A stretch of DNA of 64,000 nucleotides from Planctomycetota bacterium (GCA_019636195.1 JAHBYA010000006.1:61017-125016); one strand, 5' to 3'. Counted from the stretch's first letter, positions 5,636-63,289 are shown. A program made the numbers and translations. The notes: a model not told the origin generated them from the sequence alone.

Positions 5636-6889
5636 CTACTTCGTGCGCTCGGCGCGGGAGCGGGTGCTTCGCGAGGCCTGTAATTCGGTTTTGGCCTTGG
5701 GCGCCGACGACTCTGAAGACGCGCCCGATGGCTTGACCGCCACACGGCTTGCGCCCTCGCCGCTCCTGGACTTCTGCGTCGCACGCGACACAGCCGCCTG
5801 CGGCTTGCCCTCAACGGTTGCGATGCGGCTGTTGACCCGCGCCGCCACCGAGTTGTTGCCTGCGCGCTTGGCGATTGCGCGCAGGTCTTCAATGTATTTG
5901 GCCTTGGCTGCGTCATCGGCGGGCGGGGCCTTGCGGGCGGCGCCCTCAAGGCGCTCAAAGTCATCGCGCGCCTTTACGAAACCGGCCATGGTGTCAGAGT
6001 CCTTCCACTTGCCCACGCGGTCAGAGAAATCCTTGACCCCGGGCACCGCCCCGAACTTCTCAATCACCGGCTTGGCGCGCTCCAGCGCGTTGACGGGGTC
6101 GTAGTAGAAGTCGTCCTCAATCTTCTCGATGCGGCGGCGGGCCAGCGTTTCAATGAACTCTTTCATGTAGCCCGCGTCGGCCTTGTCCTTGTCGCTGCTG
6201 GCGCCGGAGCGCTCAACGTCGTCGGCTTCCTGCCATGCCTTGCTGTAGTCGCCGGCCTTGAAGGCGTCGTAGCTGCCCTTGCAGCGCAGCGTGACTTCGC
6301 GCGGCATGCGGTGGCAGTCGCAATTCAGGTTCATGGCAAGTCGGTCGAGGGTGGCCTCGAGTTTCTCCCACTCGCGCTCGTCGCTGTACCAGTCGTGGGC
6401 GCGCACCGTGCCGTGCTGGTCCAGGACAACCGCCTGCGGCGTGCCGATCACTTCGTCCAGCTCAAACATCTCGACGCTCAGGTCTTCAAAGTCCAGCGCA
6501 ACCGGCATCTCCCAGCGCATGCGTTGCAGGTGCTTGCGGGTCTGCTCAATGTCGGCGACGTGCGGGTAATCTTCACGGTCAAACGATGTGTTGATCGCCA
6601 GCACCAGTACACAGCGGCTGTCCTTGTAGCGCTCGTACAGTTGTTGCAGTCTTGGCATCGCGACCTTTTCGCAACCGGCGCAGTCGCGGCGATAGAACAT
6701 GAAGAACACCACGCGGTTTTCAAAGTCGTCCTGCGTCAGGGTTGCACCCTGCACCATCTCCGGGGCGAGCAACAACTCCGGGCACGGCTCGTTCAGGACG
6801 TTGGACTTCGGCTGCTTGTGGCGCTGGGCAGCCAGCGCGCCGGCCAGCAGGGCGCAACACAACGCAATGGCGGGAATTCGGACGGGCAT
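5636..6889 (-). CDS. Secreted thioredoxin-fold thiol-disulfide oxidoreductase (TlpA/redoxin-like) with long C-terminal extension
   Basis: Signal peptide. CxxC motif (DCAGCEK) in a thioredoxin-like N-terminal domain. Charged, low-complexity C-terminal tail. Confidence 0.65.
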   Translation of the reverse strand: MPVRIPAIALCCALLAGALAAQRHKQPKSNVLNEPCPELLLAPEMVQGATLTQDDFENRVVFFMFYRRDCAGCEKVAMPRLQQLYERYKDSRCVLVLAINTSFDREDYPHVADIEQTRKHLQRMRWEMPVALDFEDLSVEMFELDEVIGTPQAVVLDQHGTVRAHDWYSDEREWEKLEATLDRLAMNLNCDCHRMPREVTLRCKGSYDAFKAGDYSKAWQEADDVERSGASSDKDKADAGYMKEFIETLARRRIEKIEDDFYYDPVNALERAKPVIEKFGAVPGVKDFSDRVGKWKDSDTMAGFVKARDDFERLEGAARKAPPADDAAKAKYIEDLRAIAKRAGNNSVAARVNSRIATVEGKPQAAVSRATQKSRSGEGASRVAVKPSGASSESSAPKAKTELQASRSTRSRAERTK

Positions 6890-8987: not shown

Positions 8988-11096
<2,109 letters not shown>

Positions 11097-11254
11097 AGGA
11101 CCCCCCACGTCGGGTTTGGATAGTTGTTGTTCTATAGTAACAAACGGTGTCACATCCTTACGCGCCCACCGAAAAATGAACCGTTACACGTCCATTACGG
11201 CATTCAAGCAACAACCCTCAGTTGCAATTGAACTTACGGCTCGCGGAGGCTTGC

Positions 11255-33644: not shown

Positions 33645-34871
33645 ATGGACAACGATCGACGCAAGTTTCTGCACTACGCGGCCGCCATCACCGGCGTTTC
33701 AGTGCTTGCCGCATGCGGCGACAAGCCGGCAAACAATGCCGGGCCCGCCAACACGGCCGCGCCTGACGAGCCGGAGCCAACACCCGAGATTGTCGATACC
33801 CCCGGCAAGCGCGGCATGCTGATCGGCCCCGGCAGCGCCAGCGGTGAGACCAAGTGCTGGCTGACGTTCATCGCGCTCGACCACGTTGAAGAGTACGCCA
33901 CCGGCAAGCGCAAGGTTGACCGCCTGCCGATTGCGTTTCCCGGCCACGCCGTCGTGCCCCACCCGACCCAGCCGCATCTGGCAGCCGTGTTCCAGAAGTG
34001 GGGACCGGGCGCCTGCGAAGTTGACCTGGTAGAGCGCAAGGTCACCCGCCCCATCACCACCGTGCCCGAGCGCATGTTCTACGGCCATGGCGCCTGGTCC
34101 AGCGACGGCAAGCTGCTTTACGCCGTTGAAAGCACAGACCCCAAGCTCGGCCCCTATGAAGGCTCGGTCGTTGTGCGCGATGCCGGCAACCTGCGCATCA
34201 TGGCTGAGTTCCCGACCTACGGTATGCAGCCCCATGACTGCCACCTGCTGGACGACGGCCGCACACTCGGCATTACCAACGGCGGCGGCCCCCCCGGCGG
34301 CAACGAGCCGGGGTGTGTCACTTTCGTGGATATCCAGACCCAGGCGCTGCTCGAGAAGGTCACGATCCCGGAGCTGATGGCCGGCCACCTGATGACCAGC
34401 GGGCGCAGCAGCAAGGGCGACCTGGCGGTCGGCTGTACGCCGCATTCGCCACCGGGCACCGGGCCTGAAGGTTTCAAGACTGTGCCGGGCGGGTTGGCCC
34501 TGCGAGCGGCGGGCAGCAAAGACCTGAAGCTGATGCGCCAGCCGGCCACGGTCACGGGCAAGATGCTGGGCGAAACACTCAGCCTTGCAATCCATGAGCG
34601 GCGCGGAATTGCGGGCGCCACCAACCCGGCAGGAAACATCGCGACGTTCTGGAAGGTCGCGACCGGCGAACTGATCAAGAGCTTTGAGCTTCCGGTTGCC
34701 CGCGGCATCGGCCTTACGCTGGACAACACACATTTCCTGGTCAGTTACGGCATGGACGCCAGCCTGGTGATGATTCGGGCCTCTGACCTTGAGCTTGTGC
34801 CCGCCACACGGCTGACCGGCGACAACAAGTCGTATGTAACGGGCTCGCATTTCATCACTTACGACCTTTAG
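33645..34871 (+). CDS. Tat-signal lipoprotein, beta-propeller-like (DUF1513-like) (copy 1)
   Basis: Twin-arginine motif RRKFL. Lipobox LAAC. Propeller-like repeats (YGHGAWSSDGKLLY...). DUF assignment from memory only. Confidence 0.6.
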   Translation: MDNDRRKFLHYAAAITGVSVLAACGDKPANNAGPANTAAPDEPEPTPEIVDTPGKRGMLIGPGSASGETKCWLTFIALDHVEEYATGKRKVDRLPIAFPGHAVVPHPTQPHLAAVFQKWGPGACEVDLVERKVTRPITTVPERMFYGHGAWSSDGKLLYAVESTDPKLGPYEGSVVVRDAGNLRIMAEFPTYGMQPHDCHLLDDGRTLGITNGGGPPGGNEPGCVTFVDIQTQALLEKVTIPELMAGHLMTSGRSSKGDLAVGCTPHSPPGTGPEGFKTVPGGLALRAAGSKDLKLMRQPATVTGKMLGETLSLAIHERRGIAGATNPAGNIATFWKVATGELIKSFELPVARGIGLTLDNTHFLVSYGMDASLVMIRASDLELVPATRLTGDNKSYVTGSHFITYDL

Positions 34872-36062: not shown

Positions 36063-37268
36063 ATGGGTCCGATTCCGACCAACCCTGATCGTCGTCGCTT
36101 CCTGGCGGGCACCGCAGCCGCCAGCCTGCTTGTCGCCTGCGGTAAACCCGCCGAAAACGCGCCCGCGAACCGGGGCGAGCCTGAGCCCCCAAAGCCGCGC
36201 GAGTTCAAACGCGGCAACCTGGGCACCGTGATCGGCGGCGGCGTCGCCGTAACCGATGCCGGCAAGGCCTGGTTCGTCGGCATCGTCAACCTTGACGCTG
36301 AAAGACCCACGGCCGCGACCATCGACGACATCGGCTTTCTGGGCCACGGCTTCACGCCCAACCCGGTAAAGCCGGAAACTGCCGTCGTCTGCGAAAAGCA
36401 CGGCCCCGGCTGCTGCGAAATCGACCTGGTCAAGCGCCGCGTGCTGCGCCGCATCAAGACCACCGCCGGCCGACAGTTCTATGGCCACGGGGCATTCTCG
36501 CCCGACGCAAAACTGTTCTATTGCACCGAAGCTGAAACCGGAAACTACAGCTACAAAGGCGTACTGGCTGTGCGTGACGGCGCCAGCTTTGAGTTGCGCA
36601 GCGAGAGTTTCCCGACCCATGGCGTGGCGCCACACGACTGCATTCTTGTGGACAACGGCGAAACGCTGGTGATCACCAACGGCGGCGGCCCGGTCGACAA
36701 GCCGGACGAGCCCGCCAGCGTGGCCTATGTCGATGTGAAGTCCGGCAACGCCCGCCGCGTGCTGAAGTTCCGCGACGACAAGATCAACGCCGGGCACATC
36801 GCCATCACCGGCAAGGGCGAGCTGGTGTGCGTGTCAGCCCCCCGCGACGGCATTGAACAGAAGATCAAGGGCGAACCCAACCCCGACTGGGTCGGCGCGA
36901 TCACGTTCTATGACCCCGCGACCGACAAGCTGACCACCGCCGAGGACCCGATCCGCGAAAAGATGAAAGGCGAAACGCTCAGCGTTGCGATCCATGAACC
37001 CAGCATGATCGTGGCGGCGACGAATCCCGCGGGCAACTTGCTCACGTTCTGGGATTTCAAGACCGGCAAGCTGGTGCACAGCATTGAGGGCGAGTTCAAG
37101 TCGCCGCGCGGCGTAAGCCTGACGCTCGACGGCAACTACTTCGCGGTCACCTATGACCAGGAGACGCACCTGGCGTTGATTGACGCGCAGACCTTCAAGG
37201 TGATTGAGCAAAGCAAGGTTGACAGAACCTTCATCTCGGGCAGCCACAACATCGTCTATAAGCTGTAG
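36063..37268 (+). CDS. Tat-signal lipoprotein, beta-propeller-like (copy 2, paralogue of 33645-34871)
   Basis: RRRFL Tat motif. Lipobox LVAC. Shared motifs YGHGAFSPD, PHDC, ITNGGGP and C-terminal ...GSH.I.Y.L. Confidence 0.6.
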   Translation: MGPIPTNPDRRRFLAGTAAASLLVACGKPAENAPANRGEPEPPKPREFKRGNLGTVIGGGVAVTDAGKAWFVGIVNLDAERPTAATIDDIGFLGHGFTPNPVKPETAVVCEKHGPGCCEIDLVKRRVLRRIKTTAGRQFYGHGAFSPDAKLFYCTEAETGNYSYKGVLAVRDGASFELRSESFPTHGVAPHDCILVDNGETLVITNGGGPVDKPDEPASVAYVDVKSGNARRVLKFRDDKINAGHIAITGKGELVCVSAPRDGIEQKIKGEPNPDWVGAITFYDPATDKLTTAEDPIREKMKGETLSVAIHEPSMIVAATNPAGNLLTFWDFKTGKLVHSIEGEFKSPRGVSLTLDGNYFAVTYDQETHLALIDAQTFKVIEQSKVDRTFISGSHNIVYKL

Positions 37269-53634: not shown

Positions 53635-53872
53635 TGTGCGCAACTACAGTCACAAGTCAGGTTCCGTCGCACAATTTTGTTTACAATTCGAGTTTCGATT
53701 CTGATTCTTGGATCATCAAGATTCAGTAGTTCTTGCAACGGCAAAATTGTGCAGTATGGGCATTAGCCGAATTCCTTTGCACCTAAACCGTTTTCGCTTC
53801 TCGCCCGTTGTGCAGGCGTGCCACACTTCAAGTAATTCCTGATTGTTGTCAGCACCTTGCAAGGGGACTGCC

Positions 53873-55396
53873 ATGGTGAACCGGCTTCCTGCGCTGGTGT
53901 TCTGGGCCGCAGCAATCGGGTTGATCGTGTTCTCGACGGGCTGCGTGCAGGAAGGCGGCAAAGCCGACCTTGCACCCGCAGCGGAAGAGGACCTCAGCCC
54001 GGTTACCCAGATCAGCCAGAACGACCGCATCTTCTTTCTCAAACGTACGCACTTTGCGTTCCGGCCCACGGAACTGCAGACGCTGAACCAGATGGGGTAC
54101 GAACCGTACCTTGACTGGATGCTGACGCTGCAACAGGACCCGGCCCTTGAGGCCGCGGCGCTGGCCGCCACGGTGGCCGACGTCGAGTTTCCCAGCACAG
54201 CCGAGCTGTCGCGCTGGTGGTGCTGGCTGATGGTGCACAACCCCAACGCGTTTCAAGAGCGACTGGCGCTGTTCTGGCACGACCACTTCGCGACCAGCAC
54301 CGACGTGCTTGAAGCCGGCGAGCGCTACTGGTTCTTCAACCACATCAACCTGTGGCGCTTCCAGGGCACCAGCGGCCTGCCCGACCTGCTGCACAACATG
54401 AGCATCGACTGGGCGATGCTGAAGTGGCTCGACGGCTACGTCAGCACCCGAACCGCGCCCAACGAGAACTTCGCCCGCGAATTCTGGGAGTTGTTCACGC
54501 TCGGCGCCGACAACGGCTACACCGAGGCCGACATCCAGGAAGCAAGCCGCGCCTTTACCGGCTACCGGCGCATCTTTGTGCCGGACGCGGCGGGGCCGGG
54601 ACGTGACCAGTTCATCATGCAATGGGACCCGAACCGCCACGACAACACCTCAAAGTCGATCTTCGGCCAGACCTTCGCCGGAAACGGCCAGCAGGAGTAC
54701 CGCGACATGGTGACGTTCACGCTGTCTCACCGCGGCGTGGCCGAGTTCATCGCGCGCAAGATATGGGAAGAGTTTGTCTATGAAGACCCCAGCCCCGGAC
54801 TGGTCAGCAAGCTGGGCAAAAACCTGCGCGGCAAGAACTACGACCTGCGCGCCTTCCTAAAGATGATCTTCACTTCCAAGGCTTTCTTCAGCAGCCGCGC
54901 GCGCCAGAGCATCATCAAGAACCCGATCGAGCACCACATCGGCTTCATGCGCGCCACCGGCCTTGAAATCACCACCAACCGCATGGACAGCAACCTCAAC
55001 ACCATCGGCCAGCGGCCCACCCAGCCGCCCACCGTCAACGGCTGGCCCAGCGGGTTCTTCTGGCTGAGCAGCCAGGCGATGGTCGAGCGCGCGAACTTCT
55101 TGCGCGACTGCGTGTACTACCGCGCCGAGGCGCCGCAGGTCGGGTACGACGTAAGCACGCTGATCCTGCCGAACGAGACTGCGGACTGGCAGGTCGTGGA
55201 CCGGCTGGCCTTCCTGTTGCAGGTCAAGCTGACCGCCGCCCAGCGCGACGAGTGCATCCTGTACTTGAACTCGGACCGCAACAGCGGCGGCGTGTTCAGC
55301 CAGACCTGGGACTTCGGCGATGCCGTGCAGAAGGAAAAGAAGATTCGCGGGCTGCTTTACATCCTTGGCCAGCACCCCACCTATCACCTTCGGTGA
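53873..55396 (+). CDS. DUF1800 family protein
   Basis: Length and organisation typical of DUF1800, immediately upstream of a DUF1501 gene. Signal/anchor MVNRLPALVFWAAAIGLIVFSTGC. AAGGGGA RBS. Confidence 0.75.
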   Translation: MVNRLPALVFWAAAIGLIVFSTGCVQEGGKADLAPAAEEDLSPVTQISQNDRIFFLKRTHFAFRPTELQTLNQMGYEPYLDWMLTLQQDPALEAAALAATVADVEFPSTAELSRWWCWLMVHNPNAFQERLALFWHDHFATSTDVLEAGERYWFFNHINLWRFQGTSGLPDLLHNMSIDWAMLKWLDGYVSTRTAPNENFAREFWELFTLGADNGYTEADIQEASRAFTGYRRIFVPDAAGPGRDQFIMQWDPNRHDNTSKSIFGQTFAGNGQQEYRDMVTFTLSHRGVAEFIARKIWEEFVYEDPSPGLVSKLGKNLRGKNYDLRAFLKMIFTSKAFFSSRARQSIIKNPIEHHIGFMRATGLEITTNRMDSNLNTIGQRPTQPPTVNGWPSGFFWLSSQAMVERANFLRDCVYYRAEAPQVGYDVSTLILPNETADWQVVDRLAFLLQVKLTAAQRDECILYLNSDRNSGGVFSQTWDFGDAVQKEKKIRGLLYILGQHPTYHLR

Positions 55397-55444: not shown

Positions 55445-56749
55445 ATGAACCGCAACCTCAAAAGCACCGCCCGCCGCAACTTCCTGCGCGTAAGCGCCGG
55501 CGCCGCGGGCGTCGCCGCGCTGGGCGCCGTGACCGGCAACGGGCATACGCCGCTGAAGGCGGCTGCGCTGCCCAACCACAAACGGCTTGTCATCGTCAAC
55601 ATGCTGGGCGGCAACGACGGTCTCAACACCGTGTTCCCAGTGACCGGCGCGGAAGCTGCCGCCTACCTGAACAACCGCCCCACGCTCGGTTTCGCGCAGG
55701 GCCAGGGCCTGAGCCTGACCGGCGGGCCCGGCGTCAGCGAGTACGAGTTGCACCCGTCGCTGGTGAACTTCCAGGCGCGCTGGAATGCGGGGCAGATGGC
55801 CGTGATCCACAAGGTCGGCTACCCGCAACAGAACCTCAGCCACTTCGTCAGCGAAGATATCTGGAGCTACGGCACGCGCAGCGGGCTGGGCTCGCTGGTC
55901 GGCATGGCCCCGGGCTGGGTCGCCCGCTACGGCAACACCTACGCCCCCACCACGATGGGTGTGGTCAGCATCGGTGTCGGCCGGCGCCTAGACTTCGCGG
56001 GCGCGAACGTCAACCCGTTTCTGGTTTCCAGCGTCGCAAGCTTCAACTATCGCACCGACTTCAACTACACCCAGAACCACGCCCTGCGCCTGCAAACCAT
56101 CCAGAACATCCTGGCCCTGCAGCCTGCCGGCGACATTGTCGGCGACATTGCCGCCGCCGGAAGCTCGGCTTTCTCGGCAGCGGCGCAGGTGCAGCAGGCC
56201 GCCAGCGACTACACGGCGTGGGCTGCGGGCAACTCGATCGTGTACCCCAACACCTCGATGGGCAACCGCCTGCGCGACATCGCGACGCTGATCCACGGCA
56301 CCACCGCCACCGGCGGCTTTGAGTCGCGCGTCTTCTACACAGGCTATGGCGGCTTTGACACGCACAGCAACCAGCTCACGGCGCACGCCGGCCTGCTTAC
56401 GCAGCTCGATAACGCGCTGGGCGTCTTCTACACCGACCTGGTGGCGCAGGGAGTCTGGAACGACACCGTGCTTGTCGTGATCAGCGAGTTCGGGCGCCGC
56501 AACTATGAAAACGGCAGCAACGGCACCGACCATGGCCACGGCAACTGCGTGCTGGTGGTCGGCGGGCCCGTCAACGGCGGCTTCTACGGCACGCTGCCCA
56601 GCGTTGCCGACCTGAACATGGGCCACCTCAACTACAACACCGACTTCCGCGACGTGTACCGCGCCCTGCTGATGCAGCACCTGGCGCACGACCCCACGCC
56701 GCTGTTTCCTGAAACACAACCGACCAACAACGTGCCCAACCTCGTGTGA
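55445..56749 (+). CDS. DUF1501 family protein (sulfatase-like fold), Tat-secreted
   Basis: Tat motif RRNFLRVSAGAAGVAALGA. Conserved DUF1501 blocks (LVIVNMLGGNDGLN, FGRRNYENGSNGTDHGHGN). AGGAG RBS. Confidence 0.85.
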   Translation: MNRNLKSTARRNFLRVSAGAAGVAALGAVTGNGHTPLKAAALPNHKRLVIVNMLGGNDGLNTVFPVTGAEAAAYLNNRPTLGFAQGQGLSLTGGPGVSEYELHPSLVNFQARWNAGQMAVIHKVGYPQQNLSHFVSEDIWSYGTRSGLGSLVGMAPGWVARYGNTYAPTTMGVVSIGVGRRLDFAGANVNPFLVSSVASFNYRTDFNYTQNHALRLQTIQNILALQPAGDIVGDIAAAGSSAFSAAAQVQQAASDYTAWAAGNSIVYPNTSMGNRLRDIATLIHGTTATGGFESRVFYTGYGGFDTHSNQLTAHAGLLTQLDNALGVFYTDLVAQGVWNDTVLVVISEFGRRNYENGSNGTDHGHGNCVLVVGGPVNGGFYGTLPSVADLNMGHLNYNTDFRDVYRALLMQHLAHDPTPLFPETQPTNNVPNLV

Positions 56750-56754
56750 GCATC

Positions 56755-57954
56755 ATGCCGATTTGCCGCCACTCCCCGCGCAAGGGCCCAGCCATCCGGC
56801 TGGGCCTGATGCCCGCCGTGCTGATGACCCTGCTGCTTGCGTCCTGCCCCGCAAGCGAAGATGGCGGCGGCAGCGGCGGTGGTGGCGGGGGCGGTGGCTA
56901 CCCGGACCCCGGGCCGCGCAACCCGCTGCCCGCGGACATCACGTCGCTTGACTACTACTGGGGCGTTGAGGCAATCGCCACGGGCCTGAGCACACCCTGC
57001 AAAATGGCGCAGGCCCCCGACGGCCGACTGTTCGTCAGCGAGCTGAACGGCACTCTGCGCATCATTGAGACCACCCCGCCGCACACGCAGCACGTCTTTG
57101 CATCTGAAAATGTGCTGACCGGCAACGAGCGCGGCCTGCTGGGCGTCGCACTATCGCCCGACTTCACGACCAACGGCTATGTCTATGTCATGCTGTGCAT
57201 CAACGACGTGACGGACCGGCAACAGGTCATCCGCTACACAGCCGTCGGCAATACCTCAACTGCGCGCACGGTGCTGATCGACAACCTGCCGATCGCCCAG
57301 ACCCACAACGCGGGCGCAATCAAATTCGGGCTTGATGGCCGGCTGTACGTCAGCGTCGGCGACGCCGAATTGGATACCAATTCGCAGACCAACGGCTCAC
57401 TGGCGGGGCGCATCCTGCGCTACAACGAAGACGGCAGCATCCCGGCGACCAACCCCAAGTTCGGCACGGTGGATGCCGCCGAGTGGTGCCGCGGCCTGCG
57501 CAACGCGTTCGGCATGTGCGTGCACCCGACGACGGGCACGATCCTGATCACGGAAAACGGGCCCAACAACAACGATGAACTGAATTACGTGTCGCCCGGC
57601 AAGAACTTCGAGTGGGGCTCTACGGGCGGCATACCCGGCGCTGAAATCGGCACCAAGCTGCGCAACTGGGGCAGCGTGATCGTGCCCACCGGCTTGACCT
57701 ACCACAGCGGCAACAACGCACCGCCCAACACAGCCGACGCGCTGTTCATCTGCAGCTACGACGAAGAAGTGGTGTACAAGTTCAAGATGGACGGCAACCC
57801 GCCGGTGAACATTGACACCGAGGAAGTGTTTCTGGAGTTCACGAAGAACTTCCAGGCCAACAAGCCGCTGGACATCATTGAGGCCAACGACGGCAGCCTT
57901 TACGTCAGCACGTTCACGGCTATCTGGCGCGTGTATCGCCGCACCGGGCCCTGA
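56755..57954 (+). CDS. PQQ-dependent sugar (glucose/sorbosone) dehydrogenase-like beta-propeller lipoprotein
   Basis: Lipobox LLASC plus poly-Gly linker. GSDH family motifs GLLGVALSPDF, LYVSVGD, RGLRNAFGM. 4-nt overlap with the DUF1501 stop. Confidence 0.75.
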   Translation: MPICRHSPRKGPAIRLGLMPAVLMTLLLASCPASEDGGGSGGGGGGGGYPDPGPRNPLPADITSLDYYWGVEAIATGLSTPCKMAQAPDGRLFVSELNGTLRIIETTPPHTQHVFASENVLTGNERGLLGVALSPDFTTNGYVYVMLCINDVTDRQQVIRYTAVGNTSTARTVLIDNLPIAQTHNAGAIKFGLDGRLYVSVGDAELDTNSQTNGSLAGRILRYNEDGSIPATNPKFGTVDAAEWCRGLRNAFGMCVHPTTGTILITENGPNNNDELNYVSPGKNFEWGSTGGIPGAEIGTKLRNWGSVIVPTGLTYHSGNNAPPNTADALFICSYDEEVVYKFKMDGNPPVNIDTEEVFLEFTKNFQANKPLDIIEANDGSLYVSTFTAIWRVYRRTGP

Positions 57955-59484: not shown

Positions 59485-59672
59485 GGGGCCCCCGTTGCCG
59501 ATGTGCGAAAGTAGAATGCGCGAAATTATTGCATACACAAAGGGATCGCGCCATCGCGGATTGGAAAAACCCTGGGCCAGCGCCGTGCCCCGCAAAATTC
59601 TTATTTGGGTTTCCGGCCAAAGCCGGGTAATCCATATCAGTAATGTTCCCTTTCCTCTCTACTGGAGACCAG

Positions 59673-60656
59673 ATGAAAACGATGCTTACGCTCAGCGTAG
59701 TTGCGCTGGCGCTGCTCGCTTCTCCGGCGTTCGCGCAGGACGCCAAAGGCGTGCAGTGGACCGACAACTACGAGGGCGCCCTCAAGACCGCCAAGGAAGA
59801 AAAGAAGCGGTTGTTCATTGAATTCACCGCCGAATGGTGAGGCCCCTGCAAGAAACTGGCCCGTGACGTATGGCCAGATGAGGCGCTTGCCAAGACCATC
59901 GCCAAGAACTTTGTGCCGGTGATGCTGTACGACGACAAGGCGCCCGATGTCCTCAAGAAGTACGGCGTGCGTGCCTTCCCGACCTTCATTGTCACCGACG
60001 CCGACGGCAAAGAAGAGATGCGCCAGGTCGGCGCGCCCTTCAGCACCCCGGCCGACGCCATCAAGTGGTTCGAAAAGGTCGGCGACGCCTTTGTCAACCT
60101 GCCCAAGTACGAGGCGGCCTACGAGAAGAGTGCCGACGACCACGACAATGCCATCAAGCTGGCGGACGCCTACGCCGCGCTGGGCAAAGCCGACAAGGCC
60201 ATGCCGATTTACGAAAAGCTGGCTGAGAAGCTGCCCAAAGACGACAAGCGCCGGGTTGACGTGCAACTGGCATACGCGCAGGCGTTGATCGGCACCGCCA
60301 CCCGCGAAAACCAGGCCGAAGTCGGCGCCAAGATCCAGAAGATCTATGACGACGTGCTGCCCGGGCTGGTCAAGGCCAAGGATGAACGCGCCCTTGAGCC
60401 CGGCATCCTGAACGCACGCCTCAAGTCCGGCATCGGTAAAGACCACGATGGCGCACGCAAGGACCTCAAGGCGCTGATCGAGGCCTTCCCCGAGACCAGC
60501 CGCATGAACGAACTCATGTACTGGGCCGCGGCCATCGCACAGCAGGCCGGCGACAACGACGCCGCCAAGGCCGAGTTCCAGGCGCTGATCAAGCGCGGCC
60601 CCGCCGAAGACGACTACGTCAAGGCCGCCCAACGCAGCCTTGACCGCATGAAGTAG
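59673..60656 (+). CDS. Periplasmic thioredoxin-fold protein with in-frame TGA (putative selenocysteine, W-U-G-P-C) fused to a C-terminal TPR-like helical domain
   Basis: GGAG RBS 5 nt before ATG 59673. Signal peptide MKTMLTLSVVALALLASPAFA. Beta1 KRLFIEFTAEW, then TGA at 59838-59840, then GPC. Conserved cis-Pro (RAFPTFIV). The ORF track splits this at the TGA into 59643-59840 and 59913-60656; both are in the same frame with no other stop between. SECIS-like hairpin at 59856-59877. Strong terminator after the stop. Confidence 0.55.
59856..59877 (+). ncRNA. SECIS-like mRNA hairpin downstream of the in-frame UGA
   Basis: Perfect 6-bp GC-rich stem CUGGCC/GGCCAG with a 10-nt loop (CGUGACGUAU, containing GU). 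It starts 16 nt after the UGA, within the spacing used by bacterial SECIS elements. Confidence 0.4.
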
Positions 60657-60675
60657 CCAGATCTGCAATTTGAAA

Positions 60676-60703
60676 GGGCGGGCGCGAGCCCGCCCTTTCT
60701 GTT
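60676..60703 (+). terminator. Rho-independent terminator after the selenoprotein gene
   Basis: GGGCGGGC-gcga-GCCCGCCC followed by TTTCTGTT. Confidence 0.7.
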
Positions 60704-60729
60704 GGTGGCTGCCGCAAATGTTGTATAAG
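60702..60729 (+). promoter_or_regulatory. Candidate sigma70-like promoter (TTGGTG-N16-TATAAG) for gene 60747-61787
   Basis: Lies between the upstream terminator and the RBS. Confidence 0.35.
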
Positions 60730-60746
60730 CAACCCGGAGGTTGACC

Positions 60747-61787
60747 GTGCGCATCCCACTCGCCGCCCTGTTGCTGCTTGCACTTGCCTGCCATATCCCC
60801 GGCGCCGCGGAAGACGCCCCGGCCCCGGACCGCAAAGCCGCCATGAAGGCCGCCGCGCGCGCAGTCGGCGGGTCGTGGGTCAGTGAAGCGGTCGGGCCCG
60901 ACGGCAAAACATCGTGGGTGCGCAGCGAAACCACCTGGAGCGAAAACAAGCGTATCCTGCGCGCGCGCACGTGGTCGCTGACCGCAGACAACGAAACCCT
61001 CGACTTTGAAGGCGGCATGTACTGGCACCCCGGCACCAAGCGCATCGAGTACTTCGCCGTCATGGCCAACGGCGGTTTGTTCAAGGGCCACGTTGAGGTC
61101 AAGCAGGGCAGGCTGATCAGCCGCTGGAGCGCATGGATGGGCAGCATGACCATGCACGGTGAAAACCACACCGAGTACACCGACGACGACACCCAGGTGA
61201 CCAAAATTTACACCAAGACCGGCGATACCCTGCGCCTGATGAAAGAAATGAAAACCGTGCGCAAAGAAGCCGGCTGGAAACCCGCCAAGCCCGAAGAGGG
61301 CGACAAGGACGAAACGCCCGACAGCCCCGAGCCCTCGAGCCTCGAGCACTCCGGCAAGCTGGTCGGCGGGCAGTGGGTGACCCAGACCGACCCGGACAAG
61401 CCATACAACGGCTTCACATACGAGTGGGGCATCGGCAAACAGTTGATCTGGGGCCGCACGTTCGCAGCCAACGCCGGGGCAACCAAGGTGCTGTACGAAG
61501 GCGCACAGTACTGGCACCCGGGCGAGAAAAAGCTGCGGTACTTTGAGTGCGCAACCGGCGGCGAAGTGTACGAGGGCGAGATTACGCGCAAGGGCGAAAC
61601 CGAAATCTCCGCCTTCAAGGCCTACGGCGACAAGGGCGTCACCGAGTATGAGCAGCACAGCAAGCTCACGGACAAAGACACGCTGGAAAGCACAGTGTTC
61701 ATCCGCCAGGGCGAAGAGTTCAAACAGGCCCACAAGTTCAAGTTCACCCGCAAGCCCGCCGACTGGCCCCCAAAGCAGGACAACTAG
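60747..61787 (+). CDS. Secreted hypothetical protein with internal tandem duplication (two approximately 110-aa YWHPG.K..YF modules)
   Basis: GGAGG RBS 6 nt before GTG 60747. Signal peptide. Repeats ...MYWHPGTKRIEYFAV... and ...AQYWHPGEKKLRYFEC.... Confidence 0.5.
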   Translation: MRIPLAALLLLALACHIPGAAEDAPAPDRKAAMKAAARAVGGSWVSEAVGPDGKTSWVRSETTWSENKRILRARTWSLTADNETLDFEGGMYWHPGTKRIEYFAVMANGGLFKGHVEVKQGRLISRWSAWMGSMTMHGENHTEYTDDDTQVTKIYTKTGDTLRLMKEMKTVRKEAGWKPAKPEEGDKDETPDSPEPSSLEHSGKLVGGQWVTQTDPDKPYNGFTYEWGIGKQLIWGRTFAANAGATKVLYEGAQYWHPGEKKLRYFECATGGEVYEGEITRKGETEISAFKAYGDKGVTEYEQHSKLTDKDTLESTVFIRQGEEFKQAHKFKFTRKPADWPPKQDN

Positions 61788-63289
61788 TCGCTGGCGAGCG
61801 GTCGAAAACGGCCGTAGCCCTTTCTGTAGTGCGCGACAAACCATTCGCGCGCGCGGTCGTAGTCACGCTGCGGGCCCTTGGCGCGCAACGCTACGTGGTG
61901 CTGGATCGCGTATGCAATGAGGTAGGGCCGGACGCCCTTGGGCAACGATTGCTCCATCTCGGCTGCTGCGTCAAGGAGTTTGCGCGCTTCCTGCGGCCGC
62001 CCGCACAACAGCGCAAGCTGTGCTTCGAAGGTGCTTATCTGGAACTGCATCTGCGGCGATGACGGGTAACTTCGCCTGAGTGCTTCTATGTCCGCGCCTG
62101 CCTCAGCCAGTGTGCTCTGGGTGGGTTGTTGCAGCGCGCGCAACGCCCAGGTCGCGTGCGTGAACTCCGGCTCGGGGTCGTTGGACAGGTCCTTGCGCAA
62201 CTCACGATAGATCTCGAGCGCGCGTTGCAGGTTGGGCCCGGACTCAGACCATAGCGCCATGCGTGCAAGGCACTGCGCGAACAGCTCCACGCCGCCCACC
62301 GGCCTGGGCTGCACAGCCAGGTGTTCGAACTCGGCGACGCCCGAGAAGTACTGGGCGTAACTCCAGGGCCCCATCCAGGCGGGCCGAACCCGGTCGTCGA
62401 TGAAAGTCATCGCGCGCTGCAGCAACGGCATGCCTTCCTGGATCTCTCCAAGTTCGGTCAGCACGTCACCAATCTGTGCGTCAAGCCGCGCCAGCAGATG
62501 GGTCGGGGCCTGGTATGCATCGCCCAGCACGCGCATTGCGCGGCACAGGGCCACGCTTTCGTCAAGGCGGCCCGCGCCCTCCAGCAGGTAAGTAGAACGG
62601 ATGATCACGGCAAGCGCGTCGGTGCTCAACGTGCCGGCCCGGACAATCGCGCGCAACGCCGCGCTGCGCTGCTTGTCCACCGCAAGGTCTGAACGGTGCG
62701 CCACCATGTCGTCCATCGCCTGCGCTTCCAGCAACCGGAACGCGAGGTCTTCATCATCGCAAAGGCGCGCCACCTGCTCAGCGGCGCGGCGCAACTGGTG
62801 CACGCGCTCGGGGTGTTTGCGCCCGAAGCTGCTTTCCACATCGTCCAGAAGTTTGGCCAGAATCGGCCGGCTGTGCTCATTCAGCTTCTCGCGCAGTCTT
62901 TCATATGCGCGCAGGGCATCGTCCAGGTCGCGCAGCGCCTTCAGGTGCTGCTTGCCGGTCAGGGCGCCCAGCCGCATCTGCGCCACCACATGCATCGCCT
63001 CTACTACTTCAAGCAGGTCCGTCGCCATGCGCGCGTGGCCGGCGTGAATGTCAGCCAGATAGGGCGAGCCCTCGCCGTTCAACAGCCAGGCGGGGTTGAC
63101 ACCGAAGCCCTTGACCAACGCCGCGCAAAACGAGGCGGGAATGCGGTTGCCGGAAAGGTAGCGGCTTACGTTGGCCCGGCTTGTGGCGCAGACTCGGGCG
63201 ACGTCAGCCTGGCTGTGGCGGTCACAGACCTGCTGGAGTCTTTTGCGGATGCCCTCGTCTGCATCGGAATTGGGTTCGGTGTCCGGCAT
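61784..63289 (-). CDS. Transcriptional regulator, XRE-type HTH plus large helical domain (paralogue of 57955-59484)
   Basis: HTH HSQADVARVCATSRANVSRYL...FGVNPAWLLNGEG. Shared blocks (LLEVVEAM...MRLGALTGKQHLKALRDL) and C-terminal KGYGRF. Start chosen at MPDTEP to align with the paralogue. Confidence 0.65.
   Translation of the reverse strand: MPDTEPNSDADEGIRKRLQQVCDRHSQADVARVCATSRANVSRYLSGNRIPASFCAALVKGFGVNPAWLLNGEGSPYLADIHAGHARMATDLLEVVEAMHVVAQMRLGALTGKQHLKALRDLDDALRAYERLREKLNEHSRPILAKLLDDVESSFGRKHPERVHQLRRAAEQVARLCDDEDLAFRLLEAQAMDDMVAHRSDLAVDKQRSAALRAIVRAGTLSTDALAVIIRSTYLLEGAGRLDESVALCRAMRVLGDAYQAPTHLLARLDAQIGDVLTELGEIQEGMPLLQRAMTFIDDRVRPAWMGPWSYAQYFSGVAEFEHLAVQPRPVGGVELFAQCLARMALWSESGPNLQRALEIYRELRKDLSNDPEPEFTHATWALRALQQPTQSTLAEAGADIEALRRSYPSSPQMQFQISTFEAQLALLCGRPQEARKLLDAAAEMEQSLPKGVRPYLIAYAIQHHVALRAKGPQRDYDRAREWFVAHYRKGYGRFRPLASD

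Follow-up and report, generated by a model that had tools for sequence, protein, structure and literature searches.

A candidate SECIS hairpin downstream of an in-frame UGA in a predicted thioredoxin-fold selenoprotein gene of Planctomycetota

Bacterial SECIS elements of the E. coli fdhF/fdnG type are stem-loops that lie within the coding region, directly 3′ of a selenocysteine (Sec) UGA codon. In the bacterial consensus (Zhang and Gladyshev model), an upper stem of 4–16 bp carries a loop of 3–9 nt (PMC13188914, Fig. [quoted passage not shown] The prokaryotic selenoproteome includes Sec-containing thioredoxin (PF00085) and a 'thiol:disulfide interchange protein' (PF13098), both of which are thioredoxin-fold UxxC selenoproteins (PMC13188914). 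Complete selA/B/C/D sets have been recorded in Planctomycetes, together with thioredoxin-like Sec candidates (PMC4807772), and 'thiol-disulfide isomerase-like thioredoxin' selenoprotein candidates were listed for planctomycete strain P1 (PMC4807772, Table S9).

Here, we analysed a stretch of 64,000 nucleotides from a Planctomycetota bacterium (hereafter, the window), in which a plus-strand gene for a thioredoxin-TPR (Trx-TPR) protein contains an in-frame UGA followed by a short hairpin. Like the fdhF/fdnG elements, this hairpin is a coding-region stem-loop directly 3′ of the putative Sec-UGA, but it does not have a GGUC-type tetraloop and its register varies among orthologues. As in the thioredoxin-fold UxxC selenoproteins, the N-terminal Cys of a CxxC motif appears to be replaced by Sec and Cys-containing homologues exist; unlike them, the protein combines a signal peptide and a Thioredoxin_7/DsbH-like domain with a C-terminal TPR region of ~200 aa. 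With the strain P1 candidates, which were compared by description only, it shares the phylum, an annotation split by an in-frame UGA and nearest homologues that carry Cys. Whereas no SECIS was reported by bSECISearch for the P1 candidates (PMC4807772), the window gene has an evident candidate hairpin.

A more distant relative was found on the metagenome contig Ga0210072_1000912 (locus L039; 23% identity, E 7e-16), where a lipoprotein-type Trx(W-U-P-W-C)-TPR protein has the same domain order and Sec position as the window gene. The L039 element is canonical: a GGUC tetraloop lies 23 nt after the UGA on a 7-bp stem, below which a second, lower stem of 7 bp is formed (z −2.56). It places the SECIS loop of the family at the loop position found in the window. 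A limited literature search returned no description of a Trx-TPR selenoprotein, and no curated NCBIfam selenoprotein family (e.g., NF041199 Trx7/PDZ, NF045694 TsoB, NF041382/3 VPGUxxT) matched at cut-off. The best scores, 56 bits vs. 805 for the TsoB C-terminal domain and 29 bits vs. 300 for Trx7/PDZ, reflect domain-level similarity only.

The Trx-TPR gene and its in-frame UGA

The gene and the features by which it was delimited are as follows:

59673–60656, plus strand: full predicted selenoprotein gene, 327 aa when translated through the UGA
59838–59840, plus strand: in-frame UGA, predicted selenocysteine codon, aligned with the nucleophilic N-terminal Cys of CxxC
59913–60656, plus strand: part annotated separately as a 'tetratricopeptide repeat protein' (public 244-aa product from ATG 59922)
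60673–60700, plus strand: intrinsic terminator-like hairpin, GAAAGGGCGGGC-GCGA-GCCCGCCCTTTC followed by TGTT (from the sequence and a terminator scan)

Translation would begin at ATG 59673, which is preceded by GGAG 5 nt upstream, and end at TAG 60654–60656. The encoded protein starts with a signal peptide of typical type (MKTMLTLSVVALALLASPAFA/QD, ending …LLASPAFA/QD), which is followed by a thioredoxin fold with the site W-U-G-P-C and a C-terminal TPR domain. Pfam Thioredoxin_7 matched residues 28–107 (6e-16) with the UGA inside the match, and TPR families matched downstream. In the Pfam profile search, PF13899 reached 58.7 bits (cut-off 27) and PF00085 51.5 bits (cut-off 23.5), and PF13098 was also above its cut-off. 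These profile scores, together with a CxxC-type site where helix 1 begins, place the protein within the thioredoxin fold. The WCGHC motif of thioredoxin and PDI chains in the PDB aligned onto W-U-G-P-C and, because of this alignment, the UGA can be said to stand in place of the N-terminal nucleophilic Cys.

The terminator-like hairpin at 60673–60700 lies 17 nt past the TAG stop of the full-length ORF and closes the transcription unit. A 735-aa ORF on the minus strand (59637–61844) was rejected as a shadow ORF, as it has no credible family match and lies opposite the conserved protein encoded on the plus strand. The neighbouring genes (DUF1800/DUF1501, glucose/sorbosone dehydrogenase and TPR/HTH proteins) were uninformative. 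Neither the window nor the flanks of related loci yielded any further selenoprotein gene or any Sec machinery.

Public annotation lists this gene in shortened form. The closest database protein (MBX3459973.1, MCW8135628.1) was 100% identical over 75% of the query; besides its ATG at 59922, there is an in-frame GTG at 59913. About 28 nearest database proteins (39–100% identity) all start just past the UGA, with ~75% query coverage, which is the signature of an in-frame stop shared across the family. Planctomycetota MAGs and metagenomes supplied the DNA of 22 orthologous loci; 17 of these were distinct at the protein level, and TGA was present at W-*-G-P-C in all 17. A metagenome scan added two orthologous loci (one a nucleotide-level duplicate), the remainder being distant Cys-type homologues. 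TGC or TGT occupied the UGA position in the more distant homologues: WCGPC is encoded with UGC in L059 (protein P0029) and with TGC/TGT in the Bacteroidota-type homologues. Amino acids were kept on both sides of the UGA across orthologues, so that TGA in the orthologues, Cys in the homologues and conserved flanks together give the comparative Sec/Cys pattern. Over codons +1 to +24, from the UGA to the annotated start, amino acids were constant and codons varied synonymously (e.g., Gly GGC/GGA/GGG, Pro CCC/CCU/CCG and Lys AAG/AAA), which indicates that these 24 codons are translated in the frame of the UGA. On these comparisons of related sequences, the UGA at 59838–59840 is very probably a Sec codon.

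It is highly improbable that the UGA is a true stop in a split or decaying gene, which would leave a 55-aa stub, a TPR protein starting at ATG 59922 and a hairpin with no role in recoding. This would agree with the public annotation, which contains only the 244-aa C-terminal protein, with a hairpin that is statistically unremarkable (see below) and with the lack of visible Sec machinery, as neither SelA, SelB, SelD nor any tRNA, including tRNA-Sec, is encoded in the 64-kb window. However, such a stop would have to coincide exactly with the catalytic Cys codon in 17 orthologues at 39–76% identity, and codons +1 to +24, which lead up to the annotated start and vary synonymously, are under purifying selection at the protein level. 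It would also cut the thioredoxin fold in two and yield a C-terminal product without a signal peptide, and the terminator follows the full-length ORF only.

Downstream hairpins can stimulate read-through of stop codons in other systems. The UGA might be read without SelB or a SECIS, either by a near-cognate Cys or Trp tRNA or through a lineage-wide reassignment, the hairpin being at most a generic stimulator. We regard this as the least probable of the readings considered. TGA, TAG and TAA each end other long ORFs of the window; the genetic code is taken to be standard because TGA ends many of them, which argues against reassignment. Moreover, the UGA occupies the redox-active Cys position of a thioredoxin fold, where Sec and Cys are classically exchanged, the loop of L039 is identical to the classic SelB-binding GGUC, and the phylum has documented carriers of the Sec trait (PMC4807772).

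Geometry, folding and statistical background of the hairpin

Two features lie directly downstream of the UGA:

59841–59855, plus strand: 15-nt spacer between the UGA and the stem, GGC CCC UGC AAG AAA (from the MFE structure)
59856–59877, plus strand: candidate SECIS upper stem-loop, CUGGCC(CGUGACGUAU)GGCCAG (from folding)

An earlier note on this DNA had described a perfect 6-bp stem with a 10-nt loop containing GU, placed its start 16 nt after the UGA and its loop within the range seen for bacterial SECIS elements, and proposed to verify it by folding; all of these descriptions were accurate. The arms, CTGGCC at 59856–59861 and GGCCAG at 59872–59877, form six pairs, all Watson-Crick, around a 10-nt loop at 59862–59871 (CGTGACGTAT, or CGUGACGUAU as RNA) in which GU occurs twice. 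There are 15 nt between the UGA and the stem, which thus begins at the 16th nucleotide, and 21 nt between the UGA and the loop (allowed range 16–37). In both the 63-nt and the 141-nt context, the hairpin was the core of the MFE structure. Pair probabilities were 0.99 for the four outer pairs and 0.78 and 0.55 for the two inner pairs, the lower values arising because the inner C has an alternative pairing.

Several foldings fall within about 1 kcal/mol of one another because GGCC is self-complementary and CUGG is present twice. One suboptimal form with a bulged C contains inner G-U and U-A pairs and a 5-nt loop, GACGU, at −7.8 kcal/mol, i.e. 0.7 above the isolated 22-mer hairpin (−8.5 kcal/mol). 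The SECIS of fdhF has a bulged-U architecture, which this bulged-base variant resembles. The spacer at 59841–59855 forms weak lower-stem pairs with 59883–59891 in the window sequence only; these pairs are not conserved because orthologues carry GAA where the window has GCG. A role of the hairpin at 59856–59877 as an attenuator or terminator was rejected because no U-tract follows it.

Set against the SECIS consensus, the spacing was within range for both the 10-nt-loop form (21 nt) and the 5-nt-loop form (24 nt), the loop begins C-G-U with G as its second base, the 6-bp stem is of permitted length and the energy of the 22-mer is below the threshold, whereas the MFE loop of 10 nt exceeds the limit by 1 nt. 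The energy criterion barely discriminates here because 60% of 150 random TGA contexts satisfied the whole model in our own implementation of the bacterial consensus. For the same reason, the consensus scan, which the MFE form of the window failed owing to its 10-nt loop and 12 of 17 orthologues passed, was dropped as evidence. A covariance-model search, also suggested earlier, gave no match: no family of Rfam release 15 reached its gathering score anywhere in the window, and no SECIS-type match appeared within 59600–60100 at E up to 10.

The hairpin is statistically ordinary, and the argument that a perfect GC-rich hairpin would not be expected by chance inside a coding sequence had to be given up. 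Perfect 6-bp hairpins with loops of 3–14 nt number about 355 per strand in this 64% GC window (~5.5 per kb). Such a hairpin lies 8–25 nt downstream of 7–8% of all 1,956 TGA triplets in the window, and about 4% of the triplets have one with a G in the first two loop positions. Relative to dinucleotide shuffles, fold z-scores were −0.29 and −0.25 in the 63-nt and 141-nt contexts, respectively. In this the window hairpin differs from that of L039, which stands apart from its shuffles on a host contig of 37% GC. Nor did synonymous recodings reveal any excess stability in windows of 54 and 33 nt (mean z +0.14 and −0.18). The protein fixes most of the stem, because its arms coincide with codons for Leu-Ala (CUG GCC) and Trp-Pro-Asp ((U)GG CCA G).

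Pairing and codon choice across orthologues

These properties bear on an alternative in which the UGA is read as Sec but the 6-bp stem arises only incidentally from the Leu-Ala...Trp-Pro-Asp codons, SelB reading another pairing of the same 40 nt. The other structure could be the bulged form with the 5-nt loop, any of the shifted registers that other clades show, or a more extended fold into which the spacer is drawn; in one variant, SelB of this lineage might need only the loop bases C-G-(U/G)-G-A at a fixed distance. We consider this alternative, the main rival of the SECIS reading, unlikely. In its favour, recoded sequences fold equally well and the competing foldings are close in energy.

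Comparison of orthologues, which the earlier note had named as a further check, supported the position and motif of the loop but not the exact stem, and compensatory changes were few; a lack of structural conservation in orthologues, the outcome that the note had named as refuting, was thus seen in part. Among 19 aligned orthologous 90-mers, the 6-bp stem was intact in five (the window, L001, L002, L048 and L057); pair 2 was disrupted in 11 sequences and pair 6 in 10. In other clades, the same 25 nt were folded in registers shifted by 3–5 nt, so no single structure is conserved, and this difference in pairing between clades is a further point for an incidental stem. The Asp-type orthologues form a CUGGAC/GUCUGG stem with the loop CGUGAA, and the GCA-type orthologues a GGCA/UGUC stem with the loop CG(G/U)GA, or a bulged variant. 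The RNAalifold consensus of the 19 sequences was weak (−3.6 kcal/mol; covariation contributed no more than −0.19) and paired the amino-acid-fixed Gly-Pro codons with Trp-Pro codons. When four explicit stem models were assessed by pair counting, 73–82% of cells were paired and none of the models was universal; changes on both sides of a pair affected at most one pair per model. No reduction of synonymous diversity was seen after the UGA (observed/expected 0.87–1.0).

What every orthologue had was a hairpin whose apical loop starts 21–24 nt after the UGA, mostly with C-G-(U/G)-G-A. On average, only one other place in the gene was more structured than the 30 nt that contain the hairpin (−8.9 vs. 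−5.1 ± 1.8 kcal/mol). Loop bases +24 to +28 stayed unpaired, and stem bases +20 to +22 paired, to a greater extent in native sequences (0.68 and 0.86) than in recoded ones (0.46 and 0.73); this loop-exposure effect was significant in about a third of the sequences, and not in the window's own sequence (0.29). The Cys homologue L059, which has UGC at the UGA position and UUG for Leu, has no equivalent hairpin.

Against an incidental stem, the window and its three closest relatives cannot form the shifted registers, owing to an A instead of C at 59870 and a C instead of A at 59861. Only the 6-bp stem forms there, and its outer pairs reach the probability of 0.99 given above. In addition, L057, the most distant Planctomycetota-type orthologue, keeps the window register and extends it to 8–10 bp (−14.3 kcal/mol), a stability with a p of 0.006 relative to synonymous recodings.

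Codon choice within the family was examined by scoring 300 alignment columns by how atypical their codons are. Seven of the nine most atypical columns fell in codons +1 to +13 (hypergeometric 7e-10). The top column was Arg +8, encoded by CGU in 11, CGG in 5 and CGC in 0 of 16 sequences, even though CGC makes up 69% of Arg codons. Because Arg +8 is CGU or CGG and never CGC, the loop G always precedes U or G, which is the consensus pattern of G followed by G or U (PMC13188914). Leu +6 was CUG in 17 of 17 sequences, compared with 2 of 17 for Leu +16, and its third base, G, lies within the stem in every register. Atypical codons were also used across the family for Gly +1 and Lys +4, both in the spacer. 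In the window itself, with 36 other genes as the reference for codon usage, the rare codons CGU (6% of its synonymous set), GUA (6%) and CCA (4%) all occur inside the 22-nt hairpin. The pairing partner of U59857 is the A of CCA; a rare codon thus completes the 6-bp stem, which again speaks against the stem being incidental. Overall, however, loop bases and wobble choices were more constrained than stem pairs, as the incidental reading would have it. These codon anomalies point to selection at the RNA level after the UGA, as do the constant position and motif of the loop and the GGUC element of L039.

Proposed recoding and its significance

The best-supported explanation is that the hairpin at 59856–59877 is the predicted SelB-binding SECIS core of a thioredoxin-fold UxxC selenoprotein, to which we assign a probability of roughly 0.65. 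The SECIS reading put forward in the earlier note thus stands as the preferred one for this Sec-UGA, albeit stripped of its appeal to improbability and with a loop 1 nt longer than the consensus allows. It is the context of the hairpin that makes it probably a genuine SECIS.

Under the SECIS reading, a ribosome arriving at the UGA at 59838 would meet the hairpin 15 nt downstream, which would offer its apical loop. The loop, starting with C-G-U 21 nt after the UGA, would be bound by SelB-GTP-Sec-tRNA(Sec), and SelB, competing with release factor 2, would deliver Sec to the A site. Translation would then run for 271 more codons to the TAG at 60654, and the product would be a secreted thioredoxin-fold/TPR oxidoreductase with Sec as the nucleophilic residue of its active site (W-U-G-P-C). 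We infer that selA/B/C/D are present in the source genome.

Mechanistically, SelB/SECIS recoding at this locus would be nothing new and would represent an ordinary example of a known mechanism. The comparison also indicates that neither the stability of a hairpin nor the published SECIS consensus discriminates in GC-rich genomes. What does reveal the element is anomalous codon choice after the UGA, which could aid the prediction of selenoproteins in high-GC lineages.

More tentatively, the W-U-G-P-C signal-peptide/Thioredoxin_7/TPR proteins of Planctomycetota may constitute an uncatalogued selenoprotein family with a plastic SECIS, one that was re-registered by 3–5 nt several times while the loop start and the non-preferred wobble bases were kept. 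If this doubtful but possible scenario is true, SelB of this lineage would read loop sequence and distance far more than any particular helix. If the recoding itself is true, a conserved secreted redox protein of Planctomycetota, publicly listed only as a shortened 'TPR protein', would be a selenoprotein, and both the selenoproteome and the periplasmic thiol-redox repertoire of Planctomycetota would be under-counted.

Hairpins and codon use downstream of the UGA

Compared to the selenoprotein of the window, the protein encoded at the related locus L039 (contig Ga0210072_1000912, 37% GC) is a distant homologue with 23% identity, comprising a lipoprotein-like signal, a W-U-P-W-C motif and a TPR tail.

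1082–1969 of L039, + strand: homologue gene, UGA at 1280

This gene carries a canonical SECIS, in which a GGUC tetraloop 23 nt downstream of the UGA caps a 7-bp stem and the lower stem is likewise 7 bp long; the fold energy of this element has a z of −2.56 relative to shuffled sequences. In the selenoprotein gene of the window, a second hairpin was found ~180 nt downstream of the UGA.

60020–60034, + strand: hairpin GCGCC-AGGUC-GGCGC, within the M-R-Q-V-G-A codons

Averaged over orthologues, no other part of the gene was as structured as the region of this hairpin (mean −9.9 kcal/mol). GGUC occurs in the loop, yet the hairpin lies much farther from the UGA than SECIS spacing allows, and it is probably imposed by the conserved peptide.

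At the 15th codon after the UGA, all 14 orthologues with Glu at this position used GAA (14/14), although the share of GAA among Glu codons was just 57%. In the window this codon (59883–59885) is GCG, for Ala, and no pairing partner was identified for this codon or for the orthologous column.

Public annotation and the opposite strand

Database entries for the selenoprotein gene of the window (annotated part at 59913–60656, + strand) and ~28 orthologues (P0001–P0028) are shortened, beginning downstream of the UGA, and are labelled 'tetratricopeptide repeat protein' or hypothetical protein (e.g., MBX3459973.1 and MCW8135628.1). The 55-aa N-terminal stub is either called separately or not called at all.

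59637–61844, − strand: 735-aa ORF, antisense to both the selenoprotein gene and the adjacent gene

This ORF had no credible family match and is a GC-rich shadow ORF rather than a gene.

Other genes of the window and AhpC/TSA-type neighbours

53843–55396 and 55445–56749, + strand: adjacent DUF1800/DUF1501 gene pair
56746–57954: glucose/sorbosone dehydrogenase, downstream of this pair
33645–34871 and 36063–37268, + strand: two DUF1513 paralogues
8988–11153, − strand: 721-aa protein in which a PKD domain accompanies a complete protein-arginine deiminase (PAD) domain (3e-66)
5636–6889, − strand: 417-aa AhpC/TSA-domain protein
1345–2152 of related locus L050, + strand: 409-aa AhpC-TSA/Redoxin gene

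The DUF1800/DUF1501 pair followed by the dehydrogenase is consistent with a planctomycete origin. The DUF1513 paralogues are separated by 1.2 kb, with a 274-aa unassigned ORF in the gap. PAD enzymes are infrequent among bacteria. On one related contig, L050, the AhpC-TSA/Redoxin gene is directly downstream of a Trx-TPR selenoprotein orthologue. A functional link between AhpC/TSA-type proteins and the Trx-TPR selenoprotein is possible.
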